DNA from: a virus | Taxonomy: Duplodnaviria > Caudoviricetes | Direction: 5' to 3' (one strand) | DNA length: 64,000 nucleotides | IMG/VR virus record: IMGVR_UViG_3300033075_000639 | Coordinates: 6,167-70,166 of that record | Shown here: in pieces, positions 1,899 to 54,435 of the stretch | Numbering within the stretch: position 1 is the stretch's first letter | How the letters are laid out: every line of letters starts with the position of its first letter | The notes under the pieces: model-generated | Told to the model about the DNA's origin: nothing | The model's database searches: none | The model's input: only the letters and a program-made list of their open reading frames with translations | Made by a program: the position numbers and the translations under genes

Positions 1899-4376
1899 TA
1901 AAGAACATTTGCTATTGCCACAATCAAAGCACGTGACACAACCTTGTTCATATCTTAGATTAGATGTTGCGCCGCACTTTGGACATGATTTTACATGAAC
2001 TGGAACAGTTCCATCAGCAATGTAACTCTTTCCTAGAACACGAGCAATAACAGAAGAAAATGACGTAACATCACTATGCTTATCTTTTCTTAGTTGTTCA
2101 ACAAGATACTGAACTGGGACACCATGACGAAGTGCCAGTGACAACGTTCGTGTAAATGCGCCATAAACTGGATTGTCAAATAGATCAACGATATCCTTGA
2201 ACAGGAGTTCGGCCTCTCCTTCGACCTCAATTCGTAGATTGTATGTTGTTACACCTGATTTCTTGCCATTTTTTACAAGATAACCACGTGCCGCCTTTTT
2301 AGGCACTTCTACTTGTTCAGAAAGTCCAGCAAATATCTCATAAGGTCGCCCATCCATTAGTCCTACAAAAACAAGATATTGAACACCCTTTACAACTGCA
2401 CGATGAATATCACATTGCAGTTCTTTTGGACGCTTCGGTGCATGTGTTTCGATGATCAATTCACGTCCTTGCTCTGACGGCGTATCATCTTTCAACAGAA
2501 CACCATCACGTGAACCGTCACGATAAATTGTAACACCTTTGCAACCGGTTTCCCAACCGCGCATGTATACATCTTTTACGACGTCAACTGTTGTATCGCT
2601 TGGAATGTTCGTTGTGTTTGAAATTGCATGACAAATCCACTTCTGTGCAGCTGCTTGAACATCAATTTTCTTAACCCAGTTGATGTCATTGCTGGTTGCG
2701 CCCCAATATGGACTCTTCGTAGGATCTGTTTCGCCAGTTACGTCCATCCATTTTTTGAATCCTGGGTGATACACGGTATATTCTTGCCATTTGTCACCCA
2801 TGGCATCAACAAAATCCACACGTGCTTCTTGATCTCCAGGATTAATCTTTCTACGTCGTTTGTAGCTCGTAAGAAATGCAGGTTCACAACCGCTTGTGGT
2901 TTGTGTCAAAATTGAAACAGATCCTGCAGGTGCTGTTGTTGTCAATGCAATATTTCGTCGACCATAACGCCCATAATCTTCACGCATTTCATCATCACAT
3001 GACATTATTTGCTCAATAAATTCATGTCCACTTTCAAGAGAATAATCATACGCAGGAAATGGTCTACGATCACGAGCCATATCAATTGATTTACGATATG
3101 CATTAATCGCAAGATTCTTATAAATTTTTCCTGTCATCTCGACAGATTCGTCAGATCCGTACTTGATCCCCAAATATGCTAGCGTATCACCAAGCGCAGT
3201 AATACCAAGACCGGTACGTCGACCCAAAAGAGCAACACGTTGAATATCTTGCCATAGATTTAGTTCAACACTCTTAATGTCATCAGGTTCAGGATCTGAC
3301 TGAATTTTCTGTACTATCTTTTCAATAGCTTCAAGCTCAAGATCGATTAGATCATCCATCAATTGCTGCGCTTTTTGAACAACCGCAGCGTAACGTGGGA
3401 AATCAAATCTTGCATTTGATGTAAATGGATCAATAACAAAATTTGCAAGATTAACAAGCAGGAGTCGACACGAATCAAATGGGGAAAGACAGATTTCCCC
3501 ACACGGGTTCGTAGATGATGACAAAAAACTACGATAAATATCGGCAGGCCCGCGGCGGTGAACAGTATCCCAAAATAGCAAACCGGGTTCAGCAGATTCA
3601 TGTGCCGCAGAAATAATTTCATGCCACAGTTCTTTTGCTGAAACATATTCTGAAACGCTGTGTTTAACATCTTTTTCAACAGGAAAACGAAGTTGAACTG
3701 GTTCGTCGTTTTTAACAGCATTCATGAACTCATCTGTCAAACGAATTGAAATGTTCGCACCCGTGACTTTTTTCTTGTCTCGTTTGATGTTTATAAACGT
3801 TCGAATTTCTGGATGGTGTACAGAAATTGTCAACATTAGCGCACCGCGCCGACCACCCTGAGCAATACCACGAGTTGTTGTAGAAAATTGCTCCATGAAG
3901 ACGCCAATTCCGTCGGTTGTTCGAGCAGCATTTGCAGTTTCAACGCCCTTTGGTCGAATCGTAGAAATATCAAAACCAACACCACCACGACGCTTCATAA
4001 TTTGAGCGAGCTGTTCTGTTGTTCTGAAAATGCCACCGATTGAATCGTATGGTGGTTCGATAACAAAACAATTTGACAATGATTGATATTGAAATGGATT
4101 ACCAATTGCAGACATTGGTGAACCTTGTGGAACAACATCCCAATTTGCAAAAAGTTCATATATCTCATCATATGACATGGAGTTCGGATAATTTTGTTCA
4201 ATTCGAGCAAATTCCCTGGCCAACCTTTTATGCATGTCATCTGGTGAACTTTCATACCATTGACCACTTAGATCTTGTAGTGCATACTTAGAAGCAAATA
4301 CTTCGGCTGCAAGATCATCTCCATCAAAATAAACAAGTGATTCATCACGAACTTGTTGATACGTGAATTTCTTCAT
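1899..4376 (-). CDS. nrdJ: Class II (B12-dependent) ribonucleotide reductase with C-terminal Zn-ribbon
   Basis: Motifs SLSNCFV, GGVGFDIS, TNPCGEI and TTAPAGSVS; C-terminus CPKCG...CVTCFDCGNSKCS followed directly by TTA (1899-1901). Start ATG 4376 after GGAG, with an in-frame TTA immediately upstream of it. Confidence 0.92.
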
Positions 4377-4485
4377 TAAAATTTCTCCACAACGTAAAAT
4401 AGCATTGCGCTGGCCAAGCGATTTATCATGCTCTAGAGTAGACATAACTATCAGATAACTTGATTCAGAAACTAGAAAGTTTCTT

Positions 4486-6945: not shown

Positions 6946-7386
6946 TAACTTGCCCGTTGAACCAAACCCACCTGAGGCTCTATCTGTCTCACTCAACGGC
7001 TCTTCAGACCGCCAGAATGATGCTCGATATACTTGTGAAAATACCAATTGGGCTATTCTGTCGCCTTTTCTGATAATAAATGGTTCAGTACCGTGATTGA
7101 TTAGAATCACCTTAACTTCACCGCGATAATCACTGTCGACAGTTCCTGGTGAATTTAGGACGACAACCTTGTGTTTGAGTGCCATTCCGGATCTAGAGCG
7201 AACTTGACCTTCGAACCCAGTTGGGATTTCAAGATAAAGACCGGTGCCAACAGCAGTAACACCTCCGTTTGGAGGAACAAAAGAGTCATGTGATGCAGCA
7301 AGATCACAACCAGCAGATTCCGCTGTCTGATACGTCGGTTGTTTTTCAACGCCACAAAACTTAACAAGAATTCCTTCGAGCATCAT
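6946..7386 (-). CDS. dut: dUTPase (trimeric)
   Basis: SAGCDL, RSRSG, GTVDSDYRGE; motif 5 RASGGFGSTGK followed directly by TTA (6946-6948; standard end 6940). Confidence 0.95.
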
Positions 7387-8603
7387 AACTCATCTCCTTC
7401 ATCATCGTCTGTAGGTGATTCACCTTCGTCACTAACTGCTTGGCCTCCGTGTGTAACATATGCAGCGTCAATAACTTTGTCAAGCCACGGCTTGTAAAGA
7501 GGGTCTTTAATCATGTCACCAAATTCAGATTTGTAGAACTTTTTCTCAAGAAATATTTCACCTGTTTCAACATCTGAAACCTTAAATTCTTTCCAAGCAC
7601 CCGTTCCAGCAACTGATATATCAACTTTTGATACATTCCCTTTTGCATCTTTGTATTCTGTCAACACTTTATTTGCTGCACAATGTGCCCTGACAGTATC
7701 AAAAATAAATTCATGTTCAACAATTCCCTTCCCAAAAATAATATCAAAGAAGTGCTTTCGGAAAGGTGGCGCAACTTTATTCTTCTTGGTCGTCATAATA
7801 ACATGAATACCAACAATATTTCCTTTTGCATCTTTTACTTGAGTTCCGGACGTCAAACGAATTCGAAGTGATGCATGATAAGGAATGGCTTTCCCGCCAG
7901 GTGTGATATCAGGATCACCATGTGTTACACCAATAGCTGTTCTTAGTTGATTAAGACATAGCAACGTAACATTATTTTGACCAATCACACCAGTCAATTT
8001 TCGCATACCCTTACTGATTACACGAGCTTGCAAACCAACTGTATTTTGATCATAATCACCGTCAAGTTCAGCCTTGGGTGATGAAGCGGCTACTGAGTCC
8101 CAAATTACGAGAATAGGAACGCCCTTTGCAACAATCTGTTTCGCTTTAAGAACAGTACTTTCAATGATTGAAAATACTTCTTCTGTGCAGTGTGTATCGC
8201 AATAAACAAATTTCTTAGCAACGTTGATACCCATGTCACGCAACTTTTCTATTGGCGTCGCGTTTTCTGTATCGATATAGACAACTAGACCGCCTTGAGC
8301 TTGCGTTACTGCCGCAGCATGATATGCTAGATGAGACTTACCAATAGAAGGCGGGCCAGAAATTTCAATAACTCTTCCTTCTGGATATCCTCCACCCGCA
8401 GCATTTCTGATCGCATAATTAAGCTGGATTGATCCTGTGTCTAGCCAACGTTTAACGGTTGTGGGTGCTTCATCAACACCCAGATTATATGCAACTCTTT
8501 GACCAAATTCTTTGTTTAGATCACGAATAAGATTTTTCGTTAGTTCGTCAACATCTGACTCAGACTTTACAGTGTCATCAACGTCTTTTTTAGCTTTTAC
8601 CAT
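7386..8603 (-). CDS. recA: RecA/UvsX-like recombinase
   Basis: GRVIEISGPPSIGKS, YIDTENA, WDSVAA, LNQLR, TPGGKAIPYHAS. Ends GAG TTA TGA with a TTATG overlap onto dut. Confidence 0.92.
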
Positions 8604-8706: not shown

Positions 8707-9597
8707 TAACTCTTCGTCTGTTAGTTCTTTGAACGCATCATCAAGCGACATTTGCTTGGGAGTTGCCTTCGAAGAATCATCGTCTTCATCAACCGGTGGC
8801 TTCTTCTTTGAACGAGCCGGTTTGACATCTTCAACTACTGCGCCGCCTGAAGCCTGACTTCTTACGTCCTTGACTAGTGCATCAAGTGCATCAGCAGCAG
8901 GAGCGGCACCACGAGGAGTGCCTTCGTCGGCAGATGGCGTATCACCGCCACTTAGCCATGCGTTGAGGACGTTCTCAATTTCTTCCTTTGACTTCAAACG
9001 ATACATGTCGTCAATGTTCGGAACGCCTTCCAACCAAGCTTCCATCTGTTTTACATCGTCGCTTATTTTTGAAGTCTTCGCTCTAAAATCAACTGTGGTG
9101 TCTGCAAATTGCTTGCCGGGTTGCTGAGTAATAGTAACCTTAAGATCATGACCGTCAAGAGGGTCAAGAATATCTCCGCAATCTTCATCAACAAAAAATC
9201 CTAGTAGACGTTGGTACACAATTTTGCCAAACGACCAAACCATCACACCCTTTTCTTCTTCACCACGAACAATAACTGGCGTATATGCTCGCATCTTTGG
9301 TTGCAATTTCTTTGCTAGCTCACGATCTGCAGGCTTGCCAGAACTATACAATTTACGAATCAAATCGTCAATCGGATCAGGCTTGCCAAACTGTTTGGGC
9401 GTCAAAATTCCGGAATTTGTACCGATGTAATAAAACCATCGCTCAACAAATGGTTGACCATCAGTTACATTCTTCCAAGGCAAACAACGAATTTTATACT
9501 CACCTGGTCCTGGTTTCCAGAGTTGGACAGAAGACGTCTTCTTCGTCCCATTCAATTGCGCCATACGCTTACGAATCAAATCTAGATCTATAGCCAT
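8707..9597 (-). CDS. ssDNA-binding protein (T4 gp32-like)
   Basis: LWKP..GEY.IR.LP, DPIDD, WSFGK.VY, DILDP..G.DL and an acidic tail (DDAFKELTDEE). Ends GAG TTA TAA. Confidence 0.85.
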
Positions 9598-9696: not shown

Positions 9697-9903
9697 TAAT
9701 CTTCTCTTGTGTTGAACTTTGTTCGAAACAGCAGCACCTACTACTGCGCCCGTACCTGAAAATTCAACAACATCTTCCGCTTTACCGCTATCCTCTTGTT
9801 CACTCTCATTTTCTTGTGGCTCTAGAAGTTGATTTGGAACGCGAGCATCTCTGTCTGCTTCCAAAATCAACTTAACATATTGCACAAGAAGTTGTTTGTT
9901 CAC
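9697..9903 (-). CDS. Small hypothetical protein
   Basis: GTG start 5 nt after ATACTTA; ends AGA TTA TAA. Confidence 0.55.
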
Positions 9904-11802: not shown

Positions 11803-14790
11803 TAACTTATCTAGACCGGTAATCAATGATTTCAAATTACCAATAACAGATGGGGCAGCCTCATATTTTCCATATGCATCATAAAATGCCATAGTCAAAG
11901 ATGATTCAAATTTACCCGGTGAGAAATTATGATTAAGCCCAGATATACCGTAGATGTTATCAATTGTTGTTCCTGTGTTAAAATCGCAAAAAAACAATTG
12001 TGAATAATTTAGTAGTGGACAACCTATTGTTCTAATTGTCAGTGCTGCGGGTATTACTTTAAGTGGCAGTCCACCTTGACCGCCTCCCGCTGGCGTCGCT
12101 ATAACTTTTCTTCCAGAATTTAGCCCTAGAAGTTGCGCAGCCGTCAATTTTGCATCTTGTTTCGAAGAAATAGTAGCTTCAAGAACAGCTGATGCATTCA
12201 TACCATATATGATGCTCGGCACCATTTTCGAAACCATATTCTTAACTTGTTGATTATTAACGTCCGGTTCAATTCGCATATTTGTCAATTGAATTCCTGT
12301 ATTACCAGTCGAACTAATAACTTTCATGACATCTTTCATGACATTTTGTAGAACTTGTACAGTATTCTCTGTTTTCTTCTTGACCCATGGATCTGGGTCA
12401 ATTTCGACATAAGATGTTCCAGAAGATGAATCATGTCGTAGAATTTGCGCAGCTGTCTTATAAGGGTTAGCTGTCTTGTCATATATGTGAATACGAACAA
12501 TTTTCTTCAAATTTGAAAAGCCAGCGCTTTGTTGATCTTTTGAAGATGGATTTGTGCTAGGGCGTTTTCCAGGTTGTTCATAATATTGAAGAAGATCAAC
12601 TGCGTCTGTACCTTTAAATTTTTCATGTGTTGATTCAATATGAACTTCAATTTGTGGCATTTGAAATGTACCACGTTTACCGTTAATAGAAGACAACATC
12701 GATTCATACTGCTCACCTGTTTTTTTGTCTTTAGTCGTAGGATCTTTTTCTTTTGAATTCCATGGCTTAAAAACGCCGGCCGTACGAAAACCATATGGAA
12801 TTGCACGTGGATCATTTAGTTGTGCATCGACAGCAAGCTTTACAAATTCTTCAACTGCCATTGCTTCAGTTCCATTTGCTTCAATGACCTCTTTGTATTG
12901 ACGCATAAATACTGGTACGTCAATTGGGAATTCAGCAATATTTGTGCATGATGCTGGTCCACAACGATCATTCAACATATAAAACATGATCTGAAATTCA
13001 TCAATTGCCGGCAGTTGAATCAATGCATTTGTCATAAAAACACTAAACAACTTGCCAAAAGAACAGACTGTCTTTGACAGATTTTTCTCTTTTAGTTCTT
13101 TTATGAGTTCTTCACTAACTGAATCTTTTTGTGTATTGTATGCTTCAATATGTTTTAGAAGTGGATGATCATCATTTCCAGTTTCTGATTTCATTTTTTC
13201 ATTTTTTTCTTTGAAAATCAAAAATGGATCATATCCATTGCTAAGACTGCGAAATTTTTCATACGATATTGCTTTTGCTTGATTTGTAGCTGCTTCTTTG
13301 AACTTGAATTTATTTTCTTTTCCTTTGCCACCTTCTGGTGCATAAAGTTGTTCAAGTGCCTTTATAAGTGGATCAACATGACCTTTTTCGATTCGACCTG
13401 CAGCCTCGAGTGACTTACGTAGAGTAGCTATTGATTCTTTTATCTGTTTTGGATCTAGATCAGTAGGAAATTGACCGCTTTCTGCGGCGTCAAGAATCAT
13501 ATAGCCACGAATTTCTTTTGTCAAGCCGGGCGGATCAAGCTTGTATTTTTTACGCAAATCACCTATTTCTCTTGCAAGAGCTTCAATGTCTCTAGTAATA
13601 GACTTAAATGAATCTTTATCATCACTAATCTTCATGTCCCTGAGTTCAGAAACTGATTTTGTGAACAGTTCAAGTGTAATAGTAACTTGACCAACAGCAT
13701 CAAAAGAAAATCCTGCATTTTTAACGCCATATGCTTCTTTTGTAAGCATATTGTTATTAATGAAGTCTGCATAAGTTTCAGCAGATTTATCAGCAGAAGG
13801 TTCAAAGGGGTGTCTCCATCCATATGTCAACCAAACTGTTGTACGTGTATATGTTGTTGGTTGGATTAGATCGGCTAGTTCAGACAATCTGGAGCGATCA
13901 TGTAGCTTTATGACAGCAGTGGCTTTCTTAAATGACATGATTCCCTTGGTTGGGGCAACGTTGATTGCAACACTCTCTAGTGAAGCAAACGGTCGCGTTG
14001 GATCAAGAACGTCAACATATCTCGATCCTTCTTTTATTGGATTCATGTTCACTAGTGTTTGTGGCGACGTAAACATTTCCATGCCGGCAGATGATTTTGC
14101 ATTATCACCATCTGCCCATGCCCTTGACTTAAACATAACAGAATCAGGTGTTCCATCAGCAACTTCAACACCACCTAGCAAAAATTTCAACATACCTGCA
14201 GTCGTAAGTCTCTTTTCTGTTTCTTTGTCAAACCCACGATCAAATGCAAATTCTAGTTCAAGATATGGTACGCAACGCGACAACACAATTGATGGCAAAA
14301 AATTTAGAAATAGTTCTACTTTTTGTGCATCACGAACAAGAGGGCTCACAAATGGTGAATTAACAACGGTGATACTCATATCACGCTCGCCAAAATCTGA
14401 TTTTTTCAAACCCGATATTTGTTCAAAAGCTATGTTATCAGAAGCTTCTTTTGCCTTACCGTCAAGATACATGTAAGGATACTTTACGTCCGGTATTGGA
14501 CCTGATTTTAGCGAATAAAAATTGACAATTGAATCAAAGTCTTTTTTATCACCAACAACTGTTCCATCTGGGTTAGCTGATGCAGACGTTCGATATTCGT
14601 TTAGTTTAGAATGGATCATTGCAGAATTTGAAATTCCACCATTGGAATATTCCAGCAACAATTTTTGCAACAATCGTGACAAACTATTTTCTTTTGCAGG
14701 ATCACCAATACCAATTTTTTGTGCGATCAGGTAATCAGCAGGTGTCACCATTCTAAAAATTGAATCAAGTTTCGAAAAATCAGCGGCCAT
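11803..14790 (-). CDS. Large baseplate hub-like virion protein
   Basis: Located next to the LysM-like and tape measure genes; VWLTYGW and TIGCPLL..SQ.FF.DF.TGTTIDNIYGI..L.H.F..GKF.S motifs resemble hub proteins (family assignment by inference). Start ATG 14790; ends AAG TTA (standard end 11731 overlaps the next gene). Confidence 0.6.
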
Positions 14791-14794: not shown

Positions 14795-15088
14795 TAATCC
14801 CGTAATTGCAGCAATATCGTTAAGTTCAGGTATGTTAATAATCGTCCCAGGTGGAACTTGAAGACCCCATCCGATATCACTCGCCGCAGCAAGAACCCAC
14901 CAGTATCTTGAATCGCCATAAATACTACCCGCCAACGTATCCAATCTTTCAACACCCCTAACAACAAGTTGTTTGGTTTTGATACTGCCATTTGCAATTG
15001 CTTTACGAATTGAAACAACTGCTTCGGCAGTTCCATATTGGCGTCCATAATCGATTATTGCAGTTCTAGCGTAACGACTAAATGCCAT
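14795..15088 (-). CDS. LysM/tail-X-like baseplate wedge protein
   Basis: ERLDTLAGSIYGDSRYWWVLAAASDIGWGLQVPPGTII.IP. Ends GGA TTA, 4 nt before the next ATG (standard end 14780). Confidence 0.75.
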
Positions 15089-22678: not shown

Positions 22679-23395
22679 TAATAGTGGCCATTGAACGCCA
22701 AGTTGACGTTCAAATTCTTGTGCAGTCATGTGTTTAACACCCAATTTTTGCATTACAGATTCAACTGACGCACCTGGACGACGTAGTTCATCTTGAAATC
22801 TCCTTGACGCCAACATTGCGTTTGAAACAGCACGAACTTGTTCTTCTGAACCACGAATTTTTGTATTCACAGCCTTGCCTACAAGCCATGCACCAAGCGT
22901 TGCAAAGAAAATTTTTCCAAGCAAGTTAACATGCAATTCGTTAATTTGTTCTTTATCGTTCATGTTTACACTTTCATCCATGTTCCGCTCATCTAGATAT
23001 GCTTGAGCTCGCTTTAGAATACCAATATCTCGAGAATTTCCTGCATTTGAGAACAATTCTTGTGCCTCTTCAAATGTAACGAGACGCACTTCTTCCATTT
23101 CATGATCATGTGGACCCACTGGTCCTGTTCGAATCATCATGAAATAATGAGAAATACTATGTGTTCCAACACCAGAACCGAGACTGCCGCCATCGAGCAA
23201 CTTTGCTGGAACGCCTGCCTCTTCAGAAACTTCTCTGACAGCGGTTTGTTCCATGCTTTCTCCCGGATCAATTCTTCCTTTGGGGAAGCACCATGGCCCG
23301 TAATTATTTGAAGGTTTACAAACGTAAATCCTATATGGTTTTTCAAAGCTATCAAGAACAACGCCGCCGGCAGAAATCCACTTTTCTTTAGACAT
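22679..23395 (-). CDS. NUDIX hydrolase with C-terminal extension
   Basis: Nudix box FPKGRIDPGESMEQTAVREVSEEAG. Ends CTA TTA, then GGAACGTAA-ATG of the tape measure gene (standard end 22670). Confidence 0.85.
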
Positions 23396-27008: not shown

Positions 27009-27500
27009 TAAAAATTGCAAAACCGCGTTGTCAAATCGCAACGTTAGTGCGATTTCTGTCACTCCACCATCTTCATACGTTAGTTCTCCAAAATTCACTT
27101 CTGTTGCAAATGCACCCTTGATATCCCAGAGCTCCACAACTGTACCGACAGGATCCAACATTTTCAACTGAACATCTCTCTTATAGAAGTCAGCGTAACC
27201 TGCTCGACCAGAAACGCTTTCATAACATGTACGAACCCATTCCATGACCTGCTGAGCGCCTGATGGTGCAATTGGATCATGCAACGTAACAGCAATTGTG
27301 TTAAACGTTGTTTTACCAGCTAGATAACGTGTAGCATTGATAAACGGAACAACAACTTCTTCAGTTGTGATCGTTGGTCGTGCCGCTGTTTTAATGATAT
27401 AGGCGTCAACACCTTCGATCATAAGCACCCAACGATTTTTCCTCTTTGGTTCAAACTTATTCGGAATCATTGACGTAACGTCTAGTGTTTCTGCTGGCAT
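27009..27500 (-). CDS. Tail tube protein (T4 gp19-like)
   Basis: FEPKRKNRW, YLAGKT.F, LHDPIAPSGAQQVMEW, YKRDVQLKMLDPVG.VVE.W, LTLRFD.AVLQF followed by TTA (27009-27011; standard end 26958). Confidence 0.9.
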
Positions 27501-29557: not shown

Positions 29558-29860
29558 TAAGTTTCGACGATGACCAGGATCCGACCAAGGATCTTGTGTT
29601 AGTTCAGGCATCTTGTCAAGTTGTGCCATGATTCTGTCAATATATGACAACAGAGCTTCTGCTTGCTTCGTAGCAGTTGGATCAGAAACTTGTTGATATA
29701 GATTACCCAAGTCCTTTTTTGCAAGATTTAGGTGTGTAACAAAATCCTTAAGAGGACCTTCAACTTTTGCAGCCTTCATTGAAGGTGCCTCTTCTAGCGC
29801 ATACTGTTCCTTAAGAACACTGCGAATCACTTGTCGTAGTTGTCGTTGAGTAATTTTCAT
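29558..29860 (-). CDS. Hypothetical protein (MKITQRQLRQVIRSVLKE motif)
   Basis: Ends AAC TTA, 2 nt before the next ATG (standard end 29543). Confidence 0.7.
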
Positions 29861-32800: not shown

Positions 32801-32944
32801 AACCGTTACAGGGACAAATGCGGGTCCCTTCAACGCAGTACCAACGATTCCCGCAGGAACACCTACTGGTTCCTGTTGAACAGGTCCCGAAAGATCAATT
32901 TCCTTTGCTGTAACGCCGGCGCTTCCAAATTTTAGCTGTGCCAT
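29879..32944 (-). CDS. Tail sheath protein 1 (T4 gp18-like, large insertions)
   Basis: SAGV...EIDLS, WFAPAG..RG, VVVWGQKTL...SALDRVNVRRLL, IIFEPN, IFVQPTKSIEF..LDF. Ends ACG TTG TTA (standard end 29864). Confidence 0.92.
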
Positions 32945-39356: not shown

Positions 39357-39746
39357 ATGATGTACAAAGTTGGTGATGAAGTTGTCGTAATTATTTACGA
39401 TACTTTTGGTTATGGAAATATAAAAAATGATCGAATGCTTAAACTTCAAGTTATTGGCATTGACAGTTATGAATTGTCAATGAATTACTTGTGTTATGTG
39501 CCACACTATATGAATCATCCACATTCAAATAAACTTGATGATTATACTCTCAGGCGCTACAAAGTAGACAAAAAGTTTCTTGGAGAACAATGTGTATCGA
39601 TGTCAGTATATGAACCAGTAGCACGTCATATTCCTTGTGCTACCGGTGAAAAGTGTGATCGTTGTCAAGAATTTATTCCTGGTGGAATACGACAAGATTT
39701 CATTAAATTTCATTGTAGAAATTGCAGAGAAAATCCGTGGCGATTA
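39357..39746 (+). CDS. Hypothetical protein with C-terminal CxxC...CxxC zinc ribbon
   Basis: AGGA RBS. First in-frame TTA (39744-39746) follows CRNCRENPWR; the standard reading extends 114 nt further (to 39860), antisense into the convergent gene. Confidence 0.6.
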
Positions 39747-40325
39747 TTTGTCACTTCGAATAAATCCACGTGCAATTCGACGTACAAGATCTTCATCAGT
39801 CAGAACGGCTTTTTCAATCTGAGGTTTTTTAGATTCATAACGTTCTTTAAGTGTTTTTGAAACCGGTTGTTTTACTTCATTGTTTGATGATTTTTCAACA
39901 ACACGTTGTGAAATTACAGCAGGTTGTGGCTTAACGCTAGTTTGTCTGACTTGAATTGGTGCAGCTGTAACAGAAATTTTTGGTTGCGCTGGTCGTTGGG
40001 CAAAATTAATAGATTCAGCAACAACACTTACTGTTTTCTTAAAATTAAGTTGAAATTGCACCGGTGCAAAATATCTGTTTTCTATTAGCACTTCAACTTT
40101 GGCATGATAAAGACCTTCTTTTAGTTTGTCTTTCATTTGTGGCAACTGAAATGAAACTACGTCATCACCGCTTGAATATCCATCAAACATATATGATATA
40201 TCAGAGCTTTCACAAACAAGTCTAGCTTTTGCAGGTGCTGAAGCGCTACCTTCAATTTTGATCTTAAATGCAAGTTCATTTGCTTCTTCAATGTCTAGAT
40301 CAATCGTTTCAACAAGTTGTTCCAT
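39744..40325 (-). CDS. Hypothetical virion-module protein
   Basis: 193-aa ORF, ATG 5 nt after ATACTTA. Confidence 0.7.
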   Translation of the reverse strand: MEQLVETIDLDIEEANELAFKIKIEGSASAPAKARLVCESSDISYMFDGYSSGDDVVSFQLPQMKDKLKEGLYHAKVEVLIENRYFAPVQFQLNFKKTVSVVAESINFAQRPAQPKISVTAAPIQVRQTSVKPQPAVISQRVVEKSSNNEVKQPVSKTLKERYESKKPQIEKAVLTDEDLVRRIARGFIRSDK

Positions 40326-40337: not shown

Positions 40338-40696
40338 TACTTAAGGCGCTGAATTGAAATTTTCACGTCTTCCCAAGTCTTTCTAGTTCTTGAAGAAATA
40401 AATTCAGTTAGCGTTATAGCATAATGCGCTATTGAATTTGTACGTACGTTACCAATAATTTTAGGAGGATTGATATCGTTATTAACACGTATCAATTTGG
40501 CCCAAACAACAACTTCATTAACTTCGTCAACAACACGTTTAGCACCAGAACGTCCAATCCTAACAATTCTATCGACTTGTTCTAGAACAAATGCCAATAC
40601 AGAATTATTACCAAACCCAGAAGTAACAAGGCCTGGTGAATTTTCATCATTTCGTGGTGCAGCCATACCACGCATAATAATCTGATTACGAAACAT
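40337..40696 (-). CDS. Hypothetical protein
   Basis: 119-aa ORF whose ATG is coupled to the upstream TTA (TTATG). Confidence 0.65.
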   Translation of the reverse strand: MFRNQIIMRGMAAPRNDENSPGLVTSGFGNNSVLAFVLEQVDRIVRIGRSGAKRVVDEVNEVVVWAKLIRVNNDINPPKIIGNVRTNSIAHYAITLTEFISSRTRKTWEDVKISIQRLK

Positions 40697-41175
40697 AATA
40701 CTTTCTGTCGATCAAATACTGCACCCATAGATGGTGCACCCATATCATCATAAAGATTATATGTAGCAACTACAGTTGAATTATCGTCCTTGTAAAAAAT
40801 CATCTGATTCGCAACAATCTTCCAACGACCATATTGAATATCATACAGTTGACCAATTGTTCCGGACATTTGTGTAACTTTTGTATCGATTGAATCGATT
40901 TTTGGATTATTTTCTTCTACGTTATATTGTTCGCTGGCATATGAGGCTGTGACAAATGCTGATCCTGTATCCCATAGAATTTGTCCTCGAAAATTGTCTG
41001 GAAACGAAATATATGCAGCGTAGATTCCCAACCCGGTTTGATAAACTCCAGTTGTAGTTCGTGCAGAAACAATCGATCCTGCCGTATCTAGAACTGTGTA
41101 TCCAACTCCCGATGAACCCGTAGCATATGCTCGAGACCTACCAAAATTGACATTTCGAAGTTGCTGCAATGTCAT
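40696..41175 (-). CDS. Hypothetical tail/fibre-associated protein
   Basis: Ends GAVFDRQKV then TTA (40696-40698), overlapping the next ATG. The standard reading runs to 40582, deep inside the next gene. Confidence 0.7.
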
Positions 41176-43229
41176 AATTCAAAATATCCATCAATAAATA
41201 CAGTGCCACGAAATTGCAATGATGCTGTTGCAGCGCCTGACCAACACTTATATCCTACGTGCAAAACCGTTTGTGACAAACATGTTATTGGTTGTTTGGG
41301 ATAAAATTCAACTGCTTCACCAGTAAAAACAGCACCGATCGCCGCGGCGGCGGCAACTGTCTGCAACCCAGACAATGGAATTCGAATTGCATTTGTTGCA
41401 GATGAAAGGTTCGCTGATGATGCCCCATGAACTACAAACCACTGCAAATTTGTTCTAGTACCTACAGCAGCGCCAAGAACAACAGGCAACTGAATTCGAA
41501 TTCCTGTCAAGTTAAAAACATATGGATTCGGAATTGTAAATCCAAATATGGTCAACATTGTTTCCGCACCTGCAGTTGCGTTAACAAGATATTCACCACC
41601 AAGTGTTGTATAAGGCGCTGTTGTATTTGATGGTGTTTGTGCTGCAGGTGCGGCCGCATTTGCAAGTTGACAATTTTGTGCGTATGTTGTTGGATTAACA
41701 GAACCATATCGATTGACGCCAGACATCTGATCTGCCCATGGTTTATTATGTGTCGTATCAAGCATATGAACAATATGTTCTGATATCAACAACTTAGCAG
41801 CTGTACCACCGCCAGTGGCATCAACATACAATCGAGCATATGATGGCAAATGTGACAACAAAAACAAATTTTGATTTGTTGATAGTGCAGGAATAATCAT
41901 ATCAACAAGTGGTGCCGCAGTCGTTGCAGACGACATTACAAAACGTACATAATCATCATGAATTGTAACATCATACATGTAATATGCAGATGTAGAAATA
42001 ACGCCTTGTGCAAGAACTTGCACAACAGTTTCAGTTCCGCCGACAGCAACCACTGCAGCCAATGTTCCATCAACTCTCCATCTGAAACAACAACCATTAC
42101 TAATATTTGCAGTAGCACTATTAATACTACTAAATCCCATCTCTGATACAATGTGTTGACCAGCTGTATTACTAGTCAAACGAGCTTTAAATCTCAAACT
42201 TATAGGTGTTCGAGGCAATTTCTGAAATTGCTTAATTGTTGTAATTATGCTATATGAACTAGCTGTTGTTAGTGAACCATTGTTCAACGTAATAATACAT
42301 GATGATTGTGCAATGGTTTGTGAATTAGTTAGTTGTCGAATCCATGGATTAATTGTTGATCCTTCAATTGCATCTTGAAACATTATCATTTCAGACGTTG
42401 TTCGAAGACTATTTCCGTCAACACGCAACTGTCGAATAATTCCACCACCAACAGACTGTTCAACTCCGCCAACCATTGCAGTAGTAGGAGGTGATACAGA
42501 CCCAGACATAACAGCGTAAAGAAGTGATGGATCAAGTGCCATCGACCCCCTTACTGTACAGTTTGCAGTACCAGAAGTATATGCTGAAACACGTATTCTA
42601 ACTTGACCGGTACCAGCATTAAGAATAATTGCTTGAGTTGTTGCAGTGTTACTAGCAGTATATTGAATTGCATTCTTCTTTTGTCCCGTAACAGCATCAT
42701 CAAAATACGTTCCAACCCAAGTCGTGCCGCCGTCAACAGACACTTCTGCAACCAAAACGCCAATTAGCGTACCAGCAGCAAGTTGCATTGACACACCATT
42801 CAAACCTGCCATGTTCAATGTAACTGCAGCGTTTAGAGCACCAAGCGCGCCGGTTGAAACATTATCCGGAACTGAAGATGAAACAATAGTGTTTGGTGAA
42901 ACTGAAACAACAAGTGCTGGATCTGTTGATAGCGCAGCCGTTGATGCCGCTTTCCCTCGAAGGGAAATCATGTTTGTTCCGTCACTTACACCCATTAGCA
43001 AAGCGGAAGTGGGAACAGCGGCGCCAGTTGATCCCTGAGAGGCTAGCGATACAGTGCCAGAAATTAGTTGGGCGCCCTGTGTATACACAGAAATTGACCC
43101 AGAAACCAACTGAGCGCCTTGCGTGAAGACGCCAATTGAACCTGACACTTGAACTGCTAGCGGATTTGTATTGACGCCAATTGGATTCCCATTGACGTCA
43201 AATTGTGTTATTGATGGTGTTAGAGGCAT
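41175..43229 (-). CDS. Tail fibre / receptor-binding-like protein
   Basis: 685 aa, Ser/Gly/Thr/Ala-rich, beta-rich C-terminal region; N-terminus shared with the adjacent gene. Ends GAA TTA TGA. Confidence 0.65.
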
Positions 43230-43249: not shown

Positions 43250-44263
43250 TAACGTTAGTTCTGTAACCCGCGCAGAACCGTTTGCAGTATCCCAAATACC
43301 ATCGATGATCCCAGTATATCCAAATGGAACTTCGTAGTAACCACGGGCTGTAATTTGTGCCGAGAAGCTTGTTGATGATGCTGTTGCACCAAGTTTAATG
43401 CTTAGCGTTTTGTTTCCATCGTTAAAGATCGTTGCACCCTTGCGTGCTGAGTTAGCCGCAAGAATTGTTACGTTCGTTGCTGATGCCGCAACTGAAGATT
43501 GCGTTCCCGTTGTTGATGCAGCAGGTGTAACAGAAACTGCACCAGCAGTATCAGTTCGTAGAGTTCTAACAAATCCTGTAACGTCAGTTCCTGCAACAAT
43601 GACAGGAGCAGCGTTTGCTGCTGTTGATCCTGACAACGTCGTGCCGACAACAATTTGTCGACCTGATGAATCCATCAACATTCCCCGAACGAATCCTGAT
43701 ACGTCTGCGCCAGCCATCAATACAGGATTTGCAGTAGCTGTCGTTCCGGAAGCATTATTACCAACAACAGTAATAGTCCCGGGGATCGTAGTGTTAACAT
43801 TTAGTCGACCGTTAAAATCAGTCGAAAGTGCTCGAGTAAGATTTCCACCATCAACGCCACCCATCAACACAGGTGCGAATGTTGCAGCCGAACCGGAAGC
43901 AATAACACCTGCAACAGCTGCTGGACTTTCAAGTGTAACAGATCCTGAAACAAATAGTTTTCCGGACGTATCTGTTCTAAGACCTCTAAGAATTCCATTA
44001 GTGTCTGTACCACCTACAAGGGTTGGAAAACCGAGAGCAGTAGAACCAGATTGAACGGTGTTCAAAATTGAAATAGTGCCTGAAATTAGTTGCGCACCTT
44101 GAGTATAAACTGACACAGAACCAGAAATTAGCTGAGCTCCATGTGTATACACGTTCGTACCCGCCAAAGAGCCGGATACTTGAACTGCTAGTGGATTGGT
44201 GTTAACACCAATTGAATTTCCGTTAACGTCAATAAGAATTGCTGCTGGATTTGTAATCGTCAT
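43250..44263 (-). CDS. Tail fibre-like protein with internal repeats
   Basis: Four approximate repeats of SGS.A...PV..GG.D..G..R.L.TD..G. Ends ACG TTA TAG. Confidence 0.65.
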
Positions 44264-45865: not shown

Positions 45866-46468
45866 TAAAATATTAAACTTTCCAAGAACAATAGGTTCAC
45901 CGACTATTGGTTTAGACATTCTCCATTGAGGATTAGACTTGACAAATTCATCAACTGCAATCTTTACACCACACTTCTTACTCTTTTTACGTTTAGTTGC
46001 AGTTTTTACACCAGAATATTCTGGGCGCTCTGAATACCACATATCTTTCTCCGACCATTTACCATCATAATCGTCTATAACAATAATAGAATGATCATAT
46101 GTAATGTCATTCAACGTATTTAGTTCTTTACTTACTGTATGATAGTTGTGATCACCATCGATCAAAATCAAATCAAATTTCAATCCTTCTTTTTGAAAAA
46201 CTGGCAATACTTCTAGACTTGAATTTTCAACTATTGATATAGATTGTTTGTCTTTAACGGGTGTTAGTCCTTCAAGGGTCATAAGAACATGTTGTTGAAG
46301 TAGTACGTCCAATCCAATCAATCTAAAATTTTCTTTATTCGAAATCAAGTGTGCCGCAATAGGAATAAATGTAACACCTCGATCTATTCCAATTTCTAGA
46401 ACTGATGGTGCATGTGGAAGATCACTTATAAACTTCTTCATTAGCGGAATGTAACCATGATATGCCAT
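45866..46468 (-). CDS. Class I SAM-dependent methyltransferase
   Basis: VLEIGIDRG.T, FDLILIDGDH.Y, IIVIDDY. Ends ATT TTA, 2 nt before the endolysin ATG (standard end 45860). Confidence 0.8.
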
Positions 46469-46737
46469 TATGAAATCCTACGTAGATAAATTTTCTTTTC
46501 GTTGTATTGATTAACATAAATTACGTGATATTTCTCACTACGTTTAACAACTCGATATCGAGCCAAAATAATCCTACGAAGGAGACGTTTTGTTGAATTT
46601 TTTTCACCCTTCTCAGTCGTAGTAATAACTGTTATAATCGTTCTAATTTCTTTTGTGTAAATTCCCTCACCTTGATTCAAAAAATAAACTCTCGTATCGG
46701 TTACTCGTTCTTCCGGTTTGTCGGTGAGATTTGTCAT
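46468..46737 (-). CDS. Hypothetical protein
   Basis: 89-aa ORF coupled to neighbours on both sides (TAATG at its end). Confidence 0.5.
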   Translation of the reverse strand: MTNLTDKPEERVTDTRVYFLNQGEGIYTKEIRTIITVITTTEKGEKNSTKRLLRRIILARYRVVKRSEKYHVIYVNQYNEKKIYLRRIS

Positions 46738-46961
46738 AACATTCCTGATATCAATGCTTGAACTGCAGTTTCTACACGTGCTCTGAGATCAGCTGGAAGC
46801 GCAGACAACAGGACATATGCCTCTGATTTTATCGGTGCAGCGTAGGTGCCGCCTGTTGTATACATATCAGCATTCTGAACAGCAACACGTAGAACAAGTG
46901 GAGCAGGTCCCTTTTTGTCTGCCGCGATTGGTTTATACAAATCAACTTTTTGAAATTCCAT
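46737..46961 (-). CDS. Hypothetical protein
   Basis: Ends ATG TTA TGA with a TTATG overlap. Confidence 0.6.
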
Positions 46962-46963
46962 TA

Positions 46964-47143
46964 TAATCCTTTCAAGATCTGTCGGCCTTCATTTAGGGCT
47001 GCATTAGAAACATTCAAACGTTCCATAAGTTCTGAATAAGTTTTACGCAATGTCGCATGAAAACCAACAAAAGGTTCGGGCTCATTCAATTTACGTTCAA
47101 TATCTCTAATTTGTTCTGCTAGTAGTTCAACTGATGCTGACAT
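46964..47143 (-). CDS. Small coiled-coil hypothetical protein
   Basis: Ends GGA TTA TAA. Confidence 0.55.
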
Positions 47144-48018: not shown

Positions 48019-48026
48019 ACAAATTC

Positions 48027-48391
48027 TGGAAGCGTCGGGTACTGCCCCCGCGTCCACAACAAATCCTTCGCTAACTTCTTCACAAGCTTGACCCATCTAT
48101 ATGCTCGACCTCAGGGTGGGTCTATCGATGGTAATTTAACGTCTTTCATCTCAATGACGACACTACGTTTTACGTCCAGTGTTTTGACGTTTTTGAACAG
48201 AGATCGCTCCACTCACCGCCTAATTTTCTGTTTGCAGGTTATTAGGAAACCCATTCCTCATGCCACTAGGGCGAGAGGAGCCACGCTGTTGTCGTTAGCA
48301 TGTATACGTCACATGAGTTTTTAACTGGACTCTCGTGCACCAGTGCTTGCAGTTATCGCTATCATCACCGTGTCGAAACTATTTCGCCCCC
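48027..48391 (-). ncRNA. ssrA: tmRNA (one-piece)
   Basis: 5' GGGGGCGAAATAGTTTCGAC and 3' GACGCGGGGGCAGTACCCGACGCTTCCA form a 7-bp acceptor stem with G3.U70. Tag frame 48299-48258 encodes ANDNSVAPLALVA-TGA. CCA not encoded. Confidence 0.92.
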
Positions 48392-48449: not shown

Positions 48450-48941
48450 TAACTTCTTATGTTTTCCACGCCACTTTCTATTTTTAGGTAGTTGTGGTGG
48501 AGGTGGTGCTGGACGATGTTTACGTGGATACGATTGAGTAGGATCGTCCTTAAGGTCCTCCTCATCAAGTGTCAGAAAATTTGGAAGCGACGCTAGTTTA
48601 GATTCAGCAACAGTTACTTCAGTTTCCTTTACGTCTGACTTATCTTTTGACCATTCAACTCCTCCAAAACTAACCGTGTTAACAGGTGCAGTCTTTAGCG
48701 ATTCAATCTTGGCTTTTTGATCATTTTCCCACTCATTAAAAAGTCTATCAGTAATTTCTGTATGTGTGGCATCGCGCTTGTCGCTTTCTTCTTTACGAAG
48801 AAGTGCAGAAATAAGACATGAATGCATACGATCAACAACTATACGTACATTCATTCGATCTTGTATGTTAACCTGACCGTCAAGTTTAACCAATGTTGAA
48901 TACAGTGCCATAAATTCTGGTGGTGTTAGATTCAAACGCAT
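48450..48941 (-). CDS. Hypothetical protein, basic Pro-rich C-terminus
   Basis: Likely start ATG 48941; ends AAG AAG TTA (standard end 48435). Confidence 0.6.
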
Positions 48942-49545: not shown

Positions 49546-49830
49546 TAACCAGGTCTTGCCAGCAACTGCGTAATGCTTCTGTAGCAAATTGTAGAGCGTA
49601 CGTGCCTCCGAACCCGAGAGGGTAATCGTGGTTCCCTCAGGAAGATCAACAAACAATCGAGTGCGATTCACATTCTTTGCGGTTGAAGCCGCGAAGTTCG
49701 TGGTATACGCATCCCGACGAGCAGTTTCCGTACGTAGCTTACCCACTCGATCAGTTCGGGTACGAATAATCGCATTGCGGTTCGTAGAATCAGAGCGAAA
49801 CTTCTTCTTGGACATTGTGGTCTTCTTCAT
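49546..49830 (-). CDS. Small basic hypothetical protein
   Basis: Likely start ATG 49830. Ends AGKTW TTA; the standard-code tail after it contains two more in-frame TTA. Confidence 0.55.
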
Positions 49831-49881
49831 TTTGTTTTTTCTTTCATTTAGGAAGCTCTTTACTTGTCTTCCGTAATATGA

Positions 49882-49911: not shown

Positions 49912-49941
49912 ATTATTTTTTGTTGGCCCACGAATATTCGT

Positions 49942-50337: not shown

Positions 50338-50441
50338 ATATGATAATCATAACAATCTCACGTGACCATTGCACTGCTAGAAATGCAAAGTGGGTTCGAC
50401 AATGAAGACGAACCCAACAGGTGCATAACACAGGGTTGTTA

Positions 50442-50912
50442 TAATGCGTTGTTACCAGCTAGCGTCATAGAACCTGATCCGCCAGTAATACACCAGTGAA
50501 GACCGTCAGACACTAGAATAATAGAACCACCTGCATTCATTTTAACAGTGCCACCGCCCAAAGCAGATGGAGGAGCACCGCCCATAGAACCCGACATCTT
50601 AACAAATAGTGCACGACCATTTGTTGGTGCTGATCCTGACAATAGCCAGTCAAATGAACCATTATCAGTTGTTCCTGCAAAAATCAATGATGCACCTGGG
50701 AATGACGCTGGTGATGGGACAGAGCCCGTAAAATAGCCTGCGCCAGAAGAACCGGTACAAGGAACATAGAAAAAACCAGCAGTTGAAATTGTAATTGAAC
50801 CTGAGCTAGACAATGTCTGTGCTGAATATGTGTGTTGCTTGGCCTGTGCTGTACCTGCAACAATCATATCTGATGAACCATCATCTACAAAACCACCACG
50901 TGTATATGCCAT
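50442..50912 (-). CDS. SGS-rich virion structural protein
   Basis: GGAG RBS; ends GCA TTA TAA. Confidence 0.65.
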
Positions 50913-51005
50913 AATCTGTAATCTCCCTGCGATTTAAATAGGAAGATATCAACAGAAGATCAAATTTAATTTACAAATTCGAAAAGATATTACGTTAAAA
51001 TTTCA

Positions 51006-52430: not shown

Positions 52431-52489
52431 ATTATACCATTCCTTGGTATAGTTATTATAGTCTTGTAGTACTAACATGTTTAAATGAC

Positions 52490-52511
52490 GAAAGGCCCGT
52501 TAGGGCCTTTC
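52490..52511 (-). terminator. Hairpin downstream of MCP
   Basis: gaaaggccc-gtta-gggcctttc, 9-bp stem. Confidence 0.65.
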
Positions 52512-52539
52512 CAGTCATTTTATGTTGTTAAACAACTCG

Positions 52540-54435
52540 TAAGATTACATTCATATCTAGGACTGTTACAGTTCCGAAGAAGTCTGTACGGACCATCTTC
52601 TTACCGTATCGGGTCATCACACCCTTTCGAGGAGTGAAATCTTCAGGTGCGAAGATCGTAGGAGTCACGATAAGCGGAACGTATGGACTGTATACGTATC
52701 CCGTCTCTAGGTAAGATCCGCCCTTGTACCCAACAAGAATCTTGTTGCGTGGGAAGTATGGATCCTTGTAAACAGTGAATCGGTTTGAAACAGTTCCGAT
52801 CGCCTCTGCACCAATGGTGAATGGCGTTGAAACTTGTCCTTCGCCGTCCATTGAGAACTTTGGCTTGTAGAGAACAGAGCTCTCTAGGATCGTGCAAACA
52901 TCTGGGCCAGTAACCATGAAGTTAGCTGATCCGCGTAGCGTCTTACGGTGGATGGTGTTTGCCACATCGATAACAGTCTCGATTAGGGTCTCATACCATT
53001 CACGAACAGTTCCTGTGAACTGTGGTCCGATGCTCAAGCTTGAAGCAAGCGTCTGACGATCACCGGTGACCTTGTTGACAAAACGTCCTGGTGAACGGCT
53101 CCAGAAGTAGTTAGCTCCGTTTGCCTGTGTCACTAGATCGTTTAGAATCTCGCGGTCGATTTCTAGAGCAATCTGCTCTGAAAGAATGCTGGTCAACTCA
53201 ACTTCTGCGTCCATTGAGTGATATGCATTCAAGTCCTGTGCAAGCTCTGGTGACCAACGAGCACGTAGCTTTCGTGTCACTGCAGTGATTGCAATTGCCT
53301 CGATCTTGATATCAATCTCTGGAATTGCAGGCGATGGGGTTGATCCAAAGTCTGTTTCGAAAGAAGGAACCGTTAGGGTTGCTCCTGATCCGCTGTCGAC
53401 GGTTAGACCGTCCGTGATTGCCATTGAAACCTTGGTTACCGCAGTACCCATGGTTGGAACTGAACCACCGTTAGATAGTCGTAGAACCATCTGGATGTGC
53501 GTTCCGTTTAGAGGATTCAATGTAAACACTGAACCGGTCCAATCGCCACGCTTGTTTAGACGACGTAGGTTGTAAACTCCCGTTCCTGACTGGTAGCTTG
53601 AGCCCCATGCAGTTACGCTGTTTGCAGCCGTGAAGCCGAAGACAGAGATTTGCTCTGGTGCTAGGAAGTCACCCTTTGGAATACCGGCCTGAATTGCAGC
53701 AACCGTTAGGTGCAAGAATGCAACGTCAAGTGTACCATCGCTTAGGTCGACTTCAATCTGTGGATCGAAGTTCAACATTCTTGCGTTGGTTCCGGAAAAG
53801 TCCGTTAGTGCAGCAACGGTTCCAGCAACAGTCCATGCATTTGATGCACCGGTCCAAGCACCGCAATCTGCGTTCGATCCAGAGATCGTTAGAGATGCCG
53901 AGTGAACCTTTGAATAACCAACGTTAACGAGGTCATACATACCACCAGCAACTTGTGAACCTGACTGAACTCCCTTACCAACTGGGTTGTTATAGATCGA
54001 CTGTCCACGCTGATATGTGTCGTAGGTTGCTGAGTTGCTTAGACCCAAACCTGCGTCACCACCAACGTTTGATCCGTAGGTGTAATCTAGGTAGAAGATT
54101 AGACCGGATGGTAGTGACATTGGCTGAATTGAAACGAGTTCATTTGCAACCAAACCACCGAAGACTCTACGAACGATTGGAAATGCAATGTTCGAGAAAC
54201 CCTGAATCTGTCCGGAAGAGGTAACTGCGCCGCCTCCAGTCGACAATGAACCTGCTTCCTTTAGAACCTGTGCAGCCTGGTTCTCAAGTAGCTGGGACAT
54301 CATCTCACGCTTATTACCTTCAAGGCCGCGAAGCAAGCCGGTTCGGCTCCACTTCTCGGTGAGGCGAGCTCGCTCAGCACCAACGTGCTTTTCGCGAATT
54401 CCTTGTGCTAGTTGATCTAGTGAAAAAAACTTCAT
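52540..54435 (-). CDS. Major capsid protein (T4 gp23-like)
   Basis: KW..TGLL.GL, PIVRRVF..L.ANELVS.QPM..PSGLIFYLD, RKLRARWSPELAQDL.AYHS.DAE.EL, EIDREI, GYVYSPYVPL, P.KG.MTRYG. Start ATG 54435 after GGAG; ends ATC TTA (standard end 52528). Confidence 0.96.

Follow-up and report, generated by a model that had tools for sequence, protein, structure and literature searches.

Does the leucine codon TTA end genes in the phage represented by IMG/VR record IMGVR_UViG_3300033075_000639? The stretch of DNA analysed here (hereafter the window; 64,000 nucleotides, positions 6,167 to 70,166 of the record) derives from a fragment with a GC content of 0.40 that is part of a large T4-like phage. A preliminary description of the window claimed that TTA falls at the ends of five conserved proteins and read this as recoding of the codon to a gene end. 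The placement of TTA held at all five sites. The coding strand is the minus strand in each case, the plus strand letters being TAA at 1899-1901, 6946-6948, 27009-27011, 29879-29881 and 52540-52542, and the residues originally quoted around each TTA were correct at five of five sites. The five genes are listed below, with each junction given as upstream residues/TTA/standard-code tail.

1899..4376, minus strand: ribonucleotide reductase (RNR), 825 aa, TTA at 1899..1901, CGNSKCS/TTA/YLDHWSF..., Pfam Ribonuc_red_lgC; homologs lack anything like the 20-aa standard-code tail, which would run 35 nt into the next gene
6946..7386, minus strand: dUTPase, 146 aa, TTA at 6946..6948, GGFGSTGK/TTA/N; the Pfam dUTPase match extends to residue 145 of 146
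27009..27500, minus strand: tail tube, 163 aa, TTA at 27009..27011, AVLQF/TTA/DCDSIALL...; related contig L082 has TTA at the same site
29879..32944, minus strand: tail sheath paralog 1, 1021 aa, TTA at 29879..29881, NNITTTL/TTA/QIES; Pfam Phage_sheath_1C reaches residue 1013
52540..54447, minus strand: gp23-like major capsid protein (MCP), 635 aa, TTA at 52540..52542, LDMNVI/TTA/RVV

As a separate observation made by eye, terminator-like hairpin sequences lie within ~30 nt after the TTA of the MCP gene.

The recoding reading predicts that homologs should end at the residue before TTA, and it would be refuted by conserved extensions starting with Leu in standard-code homologs. The alignment proposed in the preliminary description was run on 262 related IMG/VR loci, and homolog ends were counted in the standard-code relatives among them, with offset 0 as the residue just before TTA. 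This residue is the commonest terminal column in four of the five proteins. MCP homologs end at offset 0 in 68 of 78 cases (wider set), and the sequence ...DMN[IV]I is followed by TGA, TAA or TAG in 77 of 79 IMG/VR relatives. Tail tube homologs end there in 42 of 47 cases, with ...VLQ[FY] preceding a canonical stop, as do 57 of 80 RNR homologs, with 12 more at -1. Ends are more dispersed for sheath 1 (offset 0 in 28/64, -1 in 16/64). No conserved Leu-starting extension was found in standard-code homologs. A tail of the form 'L...' after the MCP occurs only in relatives sharing the TTA stop, and these tails are mutually unrelated (LRVV, LR, LTITAT). The recoding reading is therefore supported by homolog ends for four of the five proteins. 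The dUTPase was a weak example, as its standard-code tail is just two residues and its relatives end at 0 (14), +1 (21) or +2 (3), so that this site alone cannot discriminate.

With TTA called as a stop, 29 of the 71 genes on the contig (~40%) end in TTA. The further TTA ends are as follows, with homolog ends given where available.

TTA 298..300, minus strand: 139-aa gene, followed by TAA; no homologs found
TTA 1024..1026, minus strand: 129-aa gene, TTATG overlap
TTA 1424..1426, minus strand: 149-aa gene; standard code gives a 53-nt overlap with the next gene
7386..8603, minus strand: RecA-like gene, TTA at 7386..7388, TTATG overlap with the dUTPase start; C-terminus varies among homologs
8707..9597, minus strand: gp32-like gene, TTA at 8707..8709, followed by TAA; homologs 25/59 at offset 0, 11 at +1
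TTA 9697..9699, minus strand: doubtful 68-aa ORF, followed by TAA; no homologs and a competing plus-strand ORF, hence an uncertain gene call
11803..14790, minus strand: 995-aa structural gene, TTA at 11803..11805; homolog ends vary, and standard code gives a 34-nt overlap with the next gene
14795..15088, minus strand: 97-aa gene, TTA at 14795..14797; homologs 31/42 at offset 0, TTA at the same site in L143
22679..23395, minus strand: NUDIX gene, TTA at 22679..22681; homologs 34/42 at offset 0, ...[WF]PL then a canonical stop, TTA at the same site in L082
29331..29588, minus strand: 85-aa gene, TTA at 29331..29333, followed by TAG; TTA at the same site in L082
29558..29860, minus strand: 100-aa gene, TTA at 29558..29560; TTA at the same site in L082
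39357..39746, plus strand: gene with TTA at 39744..39746; 4/5 homologs at offset 0
TTA 40696..40698, minus strand: 159-aa gene, TTATG overlap with the next start; 5/10 homologs at offset 0, and standard code gives a 115-nt overlap
TTA 41175..41177, minus strand: 684-aa gene, TTATG overlap; C-terminus reached by no homolog
TTA 43250..43252, minus strand: 337-aa gene, followed by TAG; 3 homologs, offsets 0 and +1
45866..46468, minus strand: methyltransferase gene, TTA at 45866..45868; 11/22 homologs at offset 0
TTA 46737..46739, minus strand: 74-aa gene, TTATG overlap; homologs 31/32 at offset 0
TTA 46964..46966, minus strand: 59-aa gene, followed by TAA; one homolog, offset 0
TTA 48450..48452, minus strand: 169-aa gene; just one homolog
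TTA 49546..49548, minus strand: 114-aa gene; offset 0 is the commonest homolog end (12/42), and the 27-aa standard-code tail is unmatched
TTA 50442..50444, minus strand: 156-aa gene, followed by TAA; 5/10 homologs at offset 0
TTA 57029..57031, minus strand: 82-aa gene, followed by TAA; homologs mostly at +1, hence an ambiguous site
57821..58321, minus strand: peptide deformylase gene (Pfam Pep_deformylase), TTA at 57821..57823, directly followed by a second TTA; 13/15 homologs at -2, 2 at +13

UUA sits where homologs have their stop codon, as is shown for MCP, tail tube, RNR, NUDIX and the 74-aa gene. No homolog alignment crosses a TTA without a stop in the subject sequence, and TTA occupies no conserved Leu position and never aligns with Leu. 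The standard-code tails (4-38 residues) are missing from nearly all homologs and are unconserved within the TTA clade. A TTA at genome position 3610, beyond the edge of the window, seemed internal to a conserved 233-aa frame, but this was rejected: the frame holds two genes, and the relatives' sequences show a stop at that point. TTA stops occur in replication, nucleotide-metabolism and late structural genes alike.

Codon counts show that no coding position retains TTA. Among standard-code ORFs of 150 aa or longer, TTA occurs 34 times in frame versus 560 in frame 2 and 213 in frame 3, an imbalance that chance cannot account for; relatives matched in GC content predict ~360-450 in-frame copies. 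All 34 lie at ORF margins, either among the final codons of the standard-code ORF or ahead of the true start, and these margins make up 1.7% of ORF codons. Usage is 1.6 per 1000 codons compared with 22-26 per 1000 in relatives (GC 0.39-0.40). Gene layout follows the same boundary. The gap from TTA to the next gene has a median of 19 nt, as it does for canonical stops, and there are six TTATG stop/start overlaps; read with the standard code, 8 of 28 genes would instead extend more than 10 nt into their neighbour. In six gene pairs compared with relatives, the summed substitutions by codon position are 86/50/230 upstream of TTA, a third-position bias, and a flat 64/54/58 downstream, where indels also occur. 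Protein-level selection ends at TTA. Genes are open under table 11 for up to 1379 aa with no need for in-frame TAG or TGA, and homolog ends match the canonical stops.

These data bear directly on the alternative that TTA is still Leu, very rare and slowly read in the manner of bldA-dependent genes, its C-terminal placement being coincidental or regulatory. In favour of this, a canonical stop comes directly after TTA in ~12 genes, so that terminal Leu and termination cannot be distinguished there, and homologs are one residue longer for dUTPase and for the 82-aa gene at 57029. Against it, the genome has 40% GC, at which relatives use TTA at the ordinary frequency given above, no TTA stands at a conserved Leu, and the tails are unconserved, evolve like non-coding DNA and would overlap downstream genes. 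We consider this alternative all but excluded. A canonical stop lies right after TTA in 10 of 28 cases in this contig but right after a canonical stop in only 3 of 44 (p = 0.0035), which leaves it possible that UUA termination here is leaky. Back-up stops were rejected as a clade-wide sign of leakiness, as the enrichment is significant in this contig only and is missing from the other clade loci (1/31 vs 8/84).

At least five other IMG/VR contigs show the same trait (L001/L266, L003, L263, L082), as L087, L143 and L081 probably do. As these come from other metagenomes, an artefact of a single assembly is excluded. In L001 and L003 the in-frame TTAs align with stops in up to ten standard-code relatives, and at orthologous gene ends TTA interchanges with TGA or TAA among related phages. 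Close sister phages use the standard code, and the distribution is patchy even at 84-87% MCP identity. The closest complete relative, contig L048 (309 kb), was considered as a TTA-stop phage and rejected, since TTA in its 5'-3' exonuclease-like gene aligns with V, L, A or I across 79 homologs. A search with the MCP for a host among genome contigs returned one unclassified MAG fragment and was uninformative.

A second alternative is that the DNA differs from the translated message, with UUA edited to UAA, or with a modified base or sequencing artefact turning TAA into TTA. Organellar precedent lends this some support, as some in-frame UUA codons there undergo RNA editing (PMC12574857). However, the effect is frame-specific and strand-independent, and it recurs in independent assemblies from several samples. 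The plus-strand gene at 39357..39746 also ends in TTA, which excludes a strand-specific DNA effect; bases 39744..39746 double as the TAA stop of a convergent minus-strand gene at 39744..40325. U-to-A editing is not known to occur in bacteria or phages. Even were editing or an artefact responsible, sense TTA has been purged, so TTA would still mean stop at the DNA level. We regard this alternative as very unlikely.

The favoured reading is that UUA is a termination signal alongside UAA, UGA and UAG in this phage, which is very likely although inferred from sequence alone. Mechanistically, the likeliest agent of termination at UUA is a class-I release factor with relaxed recognition of the second codon base, at which U would now be tolerated. 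This is proposed by analogy with RF2 Ser204 substitutions, which have been linked to UUA as a stop in labyrinthulean mitochondria and peDinoflagellate plastids (PMC12574857). Decoding by Leu-tRNA(UAA) would be absent or removed in the infected cell. Whether the factor comes from a host whose own code lacks UUA-Leu or is borne by the phage cannot at present be decided, both being similarly plausible. In the latter case it might be a changed copy of the short RF1-type gene of relatives, encoded in the ~79% of the genome that lies off this contig. The 21% completeness estimated by CheckV puts the whole genome at ~330 kb.

The machinery for UUA termination is unseen in our data, and support at the protein level, for example from C-terminal peptides, is lacking. 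No gene with an RF-1 domain was found in this contig and related fragments (G000-G005 and G010), which are 5-29% complete and silent on the whole genome. Similarly, no tRNA genes, suppressor tRNA included, were found on this contig or four related fragments, with the same ~79% of the genome out of view. A short RF1-type gene is present in three of three near-complete standard-code relatives. Its recognition motif in 120 database homologs is the ordinary PPT in most and the variant PPN in 18, and the inspected genes from relatives carry one of these two forms. The altered PPN motif was tried as a marker of the trait and rejected, as PPN-encoding contigs use TTA inside genes, that is, as sense. 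No TTA-clade member was found among 80 more closely inspected IMG/VR loci with an RF1-type gene.

A third alternative is that UUA is unassigned, no tRNA reading it, and that stalled ribosomes are freed by rescue through an ArfB/PTH-type hydrolase or tmRNA without any codon-reading factor. A tmRNA is encoded in the window (Rfam, 51.9 bits), a PTH2 gene is kept in the release-factor operon of relatives, and no release factor is visible on these contigs. The comparative evidence from homolog ends, gene gaps and substitution pattern fits this model equally well. However, the most abundant virion proteins (MCP, sheath and tube) end in TTA, and stalling followed by rescue would be slow. The tmRNA would also add a tag ending in LVA; tags of this kind are of the degradation type. 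Rescue factors require an empty A site and do not act on intact codons. In addition, unassigned codons known so far are merely avoided, whereas TTA closes ~40% of genes here. The rescue model is consequently judged unlikely.

A bolder version of the termination reading, which we offer only as a possibility, is that the phage itself imposes the code change during infection. The phage would remove UUA-Leu decoding, for example by destroying host tRNA-Leu(UAA), and supply a UUA-reading release factor. UUA-rich host messages would then be cut short while UUA-free phage genes are translated normally, amounting to host shut-off by a private genetic code. Such a scheme would account for the difference in code between sister phages whose capsid proteins are 84-87% identical, for the presence in the phage family of a short RF1-type gene of its own, and for the canonical back-up stops directly after many TTA in this contig.

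A phage lineage with a fourth stop codon would extend sense-to-stop changes to viruses and perhaps to bacterial hosts. In phages of this kind, standard gene callers fuse or over-extend ~40% of genes. A sense-to-stop change is also likely to escape alternative-code screens in which the amino-acid meaning of a codon is inferred from alignments, although this is our inference; UUA is unmentioned in the Codetta paper (PMC8629427). The patchy spread of the trait among near-identical phages provides a natural system for studying the speed of code switching and its role in host range, defence evasion or host shut-off.

The closest known parallels are the labyrinthulean/Thraustochytrium mitochondria and peDinoflagellate plastids, in which the same codon is absent inside genes and found at the stop position of homologs while canonical stops are retained (PMC12574857). 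The labyrinthulean/Thraustochytrium mitochondrial code is NCBI table 23. Those systems are organelles, whereas the present case is a large tailed phage of bacteria with a trait patchy among very close relatives. We found no report of a UUA-to-stop change in phages in the literature searched, where published cases were confined to mitochondria and plastids; the plastid case was described in 2025 as the first sense-to-stop change outside mitochondria (PMC12574857). Recoding in Lak and crAss-like phages (TAG to Gln, TGA to Trp) is likewise lineage-specific and scattered among relatives (bioRxiv 10.1101/2021.08.26.457843; PMC8346664), and these phages are likewise large, with release factors, tRNAs and other translation genes found in their relatives. 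The direction there is from stop to sense, the opposite of the sense-to-stop change proposed here. The unassigned CGG codon of Mycoplasma capricolum (Oba et al. 1991, cited in PMC8629427) is similarly gone from coding positions, but TTA in this phage is not just avoided, as it closes 29 of 71 genes, with canonical stops taking its place at orthologous sites. Finally, in-frame TTA is also very rare in Streptomyces with its bldA system (PMC4932002, PMC10732093). Those genomes are GC-rich and TTA is Leu inside a subset of genes, whereas here, at 40% GC, TTA is never aligned with Leu.

Translation of the TTA-ended genes stops at UUA, a conclusion that rests on comparative data without protein or transcript data. 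The preliminary description placed TTA exactly where five conserved proteins should end, namely ribonucleotide reductase (1899), dUTPase (6946), tail tube (27009), sheath 1 (29879) and major capsid protein (52540), and all five sites are confirmed as described. Given that these genes lie on the minus strand, TTA here denotes the coding-strand codon and the plus strand reads TAA at these positions. It was further expected that homologs would terminate at the residue preceding TTA. For this comparison 262 related IMG/VR loci were gathered using capsid, sheath, a 995-aa structural protein and reductase as anchors, and each homolog's C-terminus was projected onto the window proteins, with offsets taken as ungapped projections from tblastn alignments. 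Capsid, tube, reductase and sheath 1 support the expectation. For the capsid protein, 77/79 relatives end ...DMN[IV]I followed by TGA, TAA or TAG, the exact residue before the window's TTA, while ...VLQ[FY] is the end in 42/47 tail tube homologs. Reductase homologs end at the residue before TTA in 57 of 80 cases and one residue earlier in 12 (...SKC or ...SKCx), and the equivalent counts for sheath 1 are 28 and 16 of 64. The dUTPase example is a real site but uninformative, as the standard code would lengthen the protein by just two residues; homolog offsets are 0, +1 and +2. Homolog ends also match at other TTA-ended genes, including a NUDIX gene (34/42), a 97-aa gene (31/42), a 74-aa gene (31/32) and the plus-strand TTA-ended gene (4/5). 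Homolog ends agree equally well at genes closed by a canonical stop; a TTA end is thus no worse than an ordinary one.

TTA is depleted within genes: standard-code ORFs of 150 aa or longer hold 34 in-frame copies, versus 560 and 213 copies in the two remaining frames, and this frame-specific loss concerns translation rather than DNA composition. TTA is the rarest Leu codon (1.6 per 1000 codons in a 40% GC genome), whereas related phages with a GC content of 0.39–0.40 use it at 22–26 per 1000, a rate that predicts about 360–450 copies here. The 34 in-frame copies are not scattered but fall among the last codons of ORFs or ahead of the true start, in margins amounting to 1.7% of ORF codons. An internal TTA at genome position 3610 (full-record numbering, outside the window) was considered as an exception and rejected, as the relatives' stop aligns with it and two genes share one frame.

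Gene layout and the pattern of substitution change at TTA. With TTA read as a stop, the 71 genes of the contig end in TTA (29), TAA (22), TGA (18) or TAG (2), and the median gap to the next start after TTA is 19 nt, equal to that after canonical stops. If the standard code applied, 8/28 TTA-ended genes would run more than 10 nt into the following gene, reaching 115 nt at most within the window. Six junctions read TTATG, mirroring the well-known TAATG stop/start overlap. In six gene pairs compared against relatives having the same TTA site, substitutions by codon position in the 240 nt upstream are third-position-heavy (86/50/230), whereas those in the 45 nt downstream are flat (64/54/58) and accompanied by indels. 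By our own reading of the sequences, three phages have hairpin-like, terminator-typical stretches trailing the capsid gene. One convergent gene pair shares a single triplet:

39744–39746: TTA stop for the gene at 39357..39746 (+) and TAA stop for the gene at 39744..40325 (−)

The plus-strand gene thus also ends in TTA, making the effect independent of strand. TAA reads TTA on the complementary strand, which with such a code makes each TAA stop a potential stop there as well.

The TTA stops are not an artefact of a single assembly. Searching for the C-terminal capsid pattern plus TTA recovered four further IMG/VR contigs from other samples, and gene-by-gene inspection found the same usage in the related loci L001/L266 (10/27 genes), L082 (7/12), L263 and L003; L087, L143 and L081 probably use TTA stops as well. 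In-frame TTAs of L001 and L003 align with the stop symbol in up to ten standard-code relatives, and orthologous gene ends exchange TTA in one member for TGA or TAA in another, the behaviour expected of synonymous stop signals. A quick capsid tree joins the window and L001 as a pair (SH-aLRT 90) within a small group that also contains the standard-code phages L048 and L004/L005, the latter with TTA-Leu at 26–32 per 1000 codons; L263 lies far off at the end of a long branch. This mixing of carriers with standard-code phages makes the trait patchy, with several gains or losses. Separately, L143/L189 (IMGVR_UViG_3300031772_000310, GC 0.51) has zero in-frame TTA in ~8,500 interior codons and just one TTA-ended gene; it might be a GC-richer member with TTA purged yet rarely a stop, or an intermediate state.

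The window is a piece of a large T4-like phage. It spans bases 6167–70166 of its source record, which is single, linear and 70,166 bp long, with a CheckV completeness estimate of 21%, and nearly all genes, called here by simple ORF rules, are on the minus strand. Pfam identifies ribonucleotide reductase, DnaB-like helicase, 5'-3' exonuclease, dUTPase, RecA-type recombinase, a gp32-like protein, a small family-A polymerase, a baseplate protein, a gp19-like tail tube, a gp15-like protein, two sheath paralogs of ~1000 aa each, M15 endolysin, prohead protease and peptide deformylase; the capsid protein is gp23-like. Further features are:

29879–32944 and 33015–36032 (−): two tail sheath paralogs in tandem (1021 and 1005 aa), each with a Phage_sheath_1C match
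47264–47986 and 58318–59025 (−): two GIY-YIG homing-endonuclease-like genes, adjoining the tmRNA and deformylase genes
48024–48391 (−): phage-encoded tmRNA, Rfam RF00023, 51.9 bits against a gathering threshold of 47, full-length model
51006–52430 (−): NUMOD3 plus GNAT protein, adjoining the capsid gene

One sheath paralog stops with TTA and the other with TGA. The location of the GIY-YIG genes and the NUMOD3/GNAT protein suggests mobile-element traffic in the head module. Across the contig, an SD-like 4-mer (AAGG/AGGA/GGAG/GAGG) lies at −18..−5 in 27/71 starts versus 9% of random positions, which makes Shine-Dalgarno use moderate.

Comparative data are silent on how termination at UUA happens. 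Ribosomes could stall at an unassigned UUA codon and then be rescued, but this weaker rival is very unlikely given that TTA closes the genes of the most abundant virion proteins. The tmRNA, which ARAGORN does not report at 48024–48391, has a tag that we read as ANDNSVAPLALVA, closed by UGA and with CUC/CUA for Leu, and it provides no evidence for or against any mechanism. Contig-wide, a canonical stop directly follows TTA in 10/28 genes versus 3/44 after canonical stops (p = 0.0035), with TTATGA overlaps accounting for 4/10. This excess is absent from other clade loci (1/31 versus 8/84), and back-up stops point only weakly, if at all, to leaky termination.

Rather than stalling, the likeliest agent would be a class-I release factor with relaxed second-base reading, by analogy with organelles, where UUA as stop is tied to a Ser204 substitution in RF2-type factors (PMC12574857). 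No release factor or tRNA genes were found on the contig or related fragments, all of which are just 5–29% complete. In 3/3 near-complete standard-code relatives a short RF1-type gene, whose product has GGQ and either PPT or PPN as motifs, sits in an operon with YAcAr, NADAR and PTH2 genes, which makes a phage-borne factor plausible. In the related loci L268-L270 and L271-L354 it encodes about 170–200 aa, with a 37-aa mini-ORF upstream and YAcAr, NADAR and PTH2 downstream. The N-terminal part of the L268 gene is in a different frame, suggesting a frameshift. A search for the TTA clade's own copy of this gene did not find one. PPN replaces PPT in 18 of the 120 closest database homologs, and was rejected as a marker of TTA stops since it does not go with the trait. 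Whether host or phage supplies the mechanism is finely balanced. Supply by the host is supported by sense TTA being avoided, and TTA stops used, in replication/nucleotide-metabolism and late structural genes alike; supply by the phage is supported by a code switch that falls between sister phages and by inspected carriers whose GC content spans 0.40 to 0.52.

No sense-to-stop change in a phage or bacterium was reported in the literature searched, and UUA is not mentioned in the Codetta screen. The known parallel is organellar: UUA as a stop in plastids has been called the first case outside mitochondria (PMC12574857).
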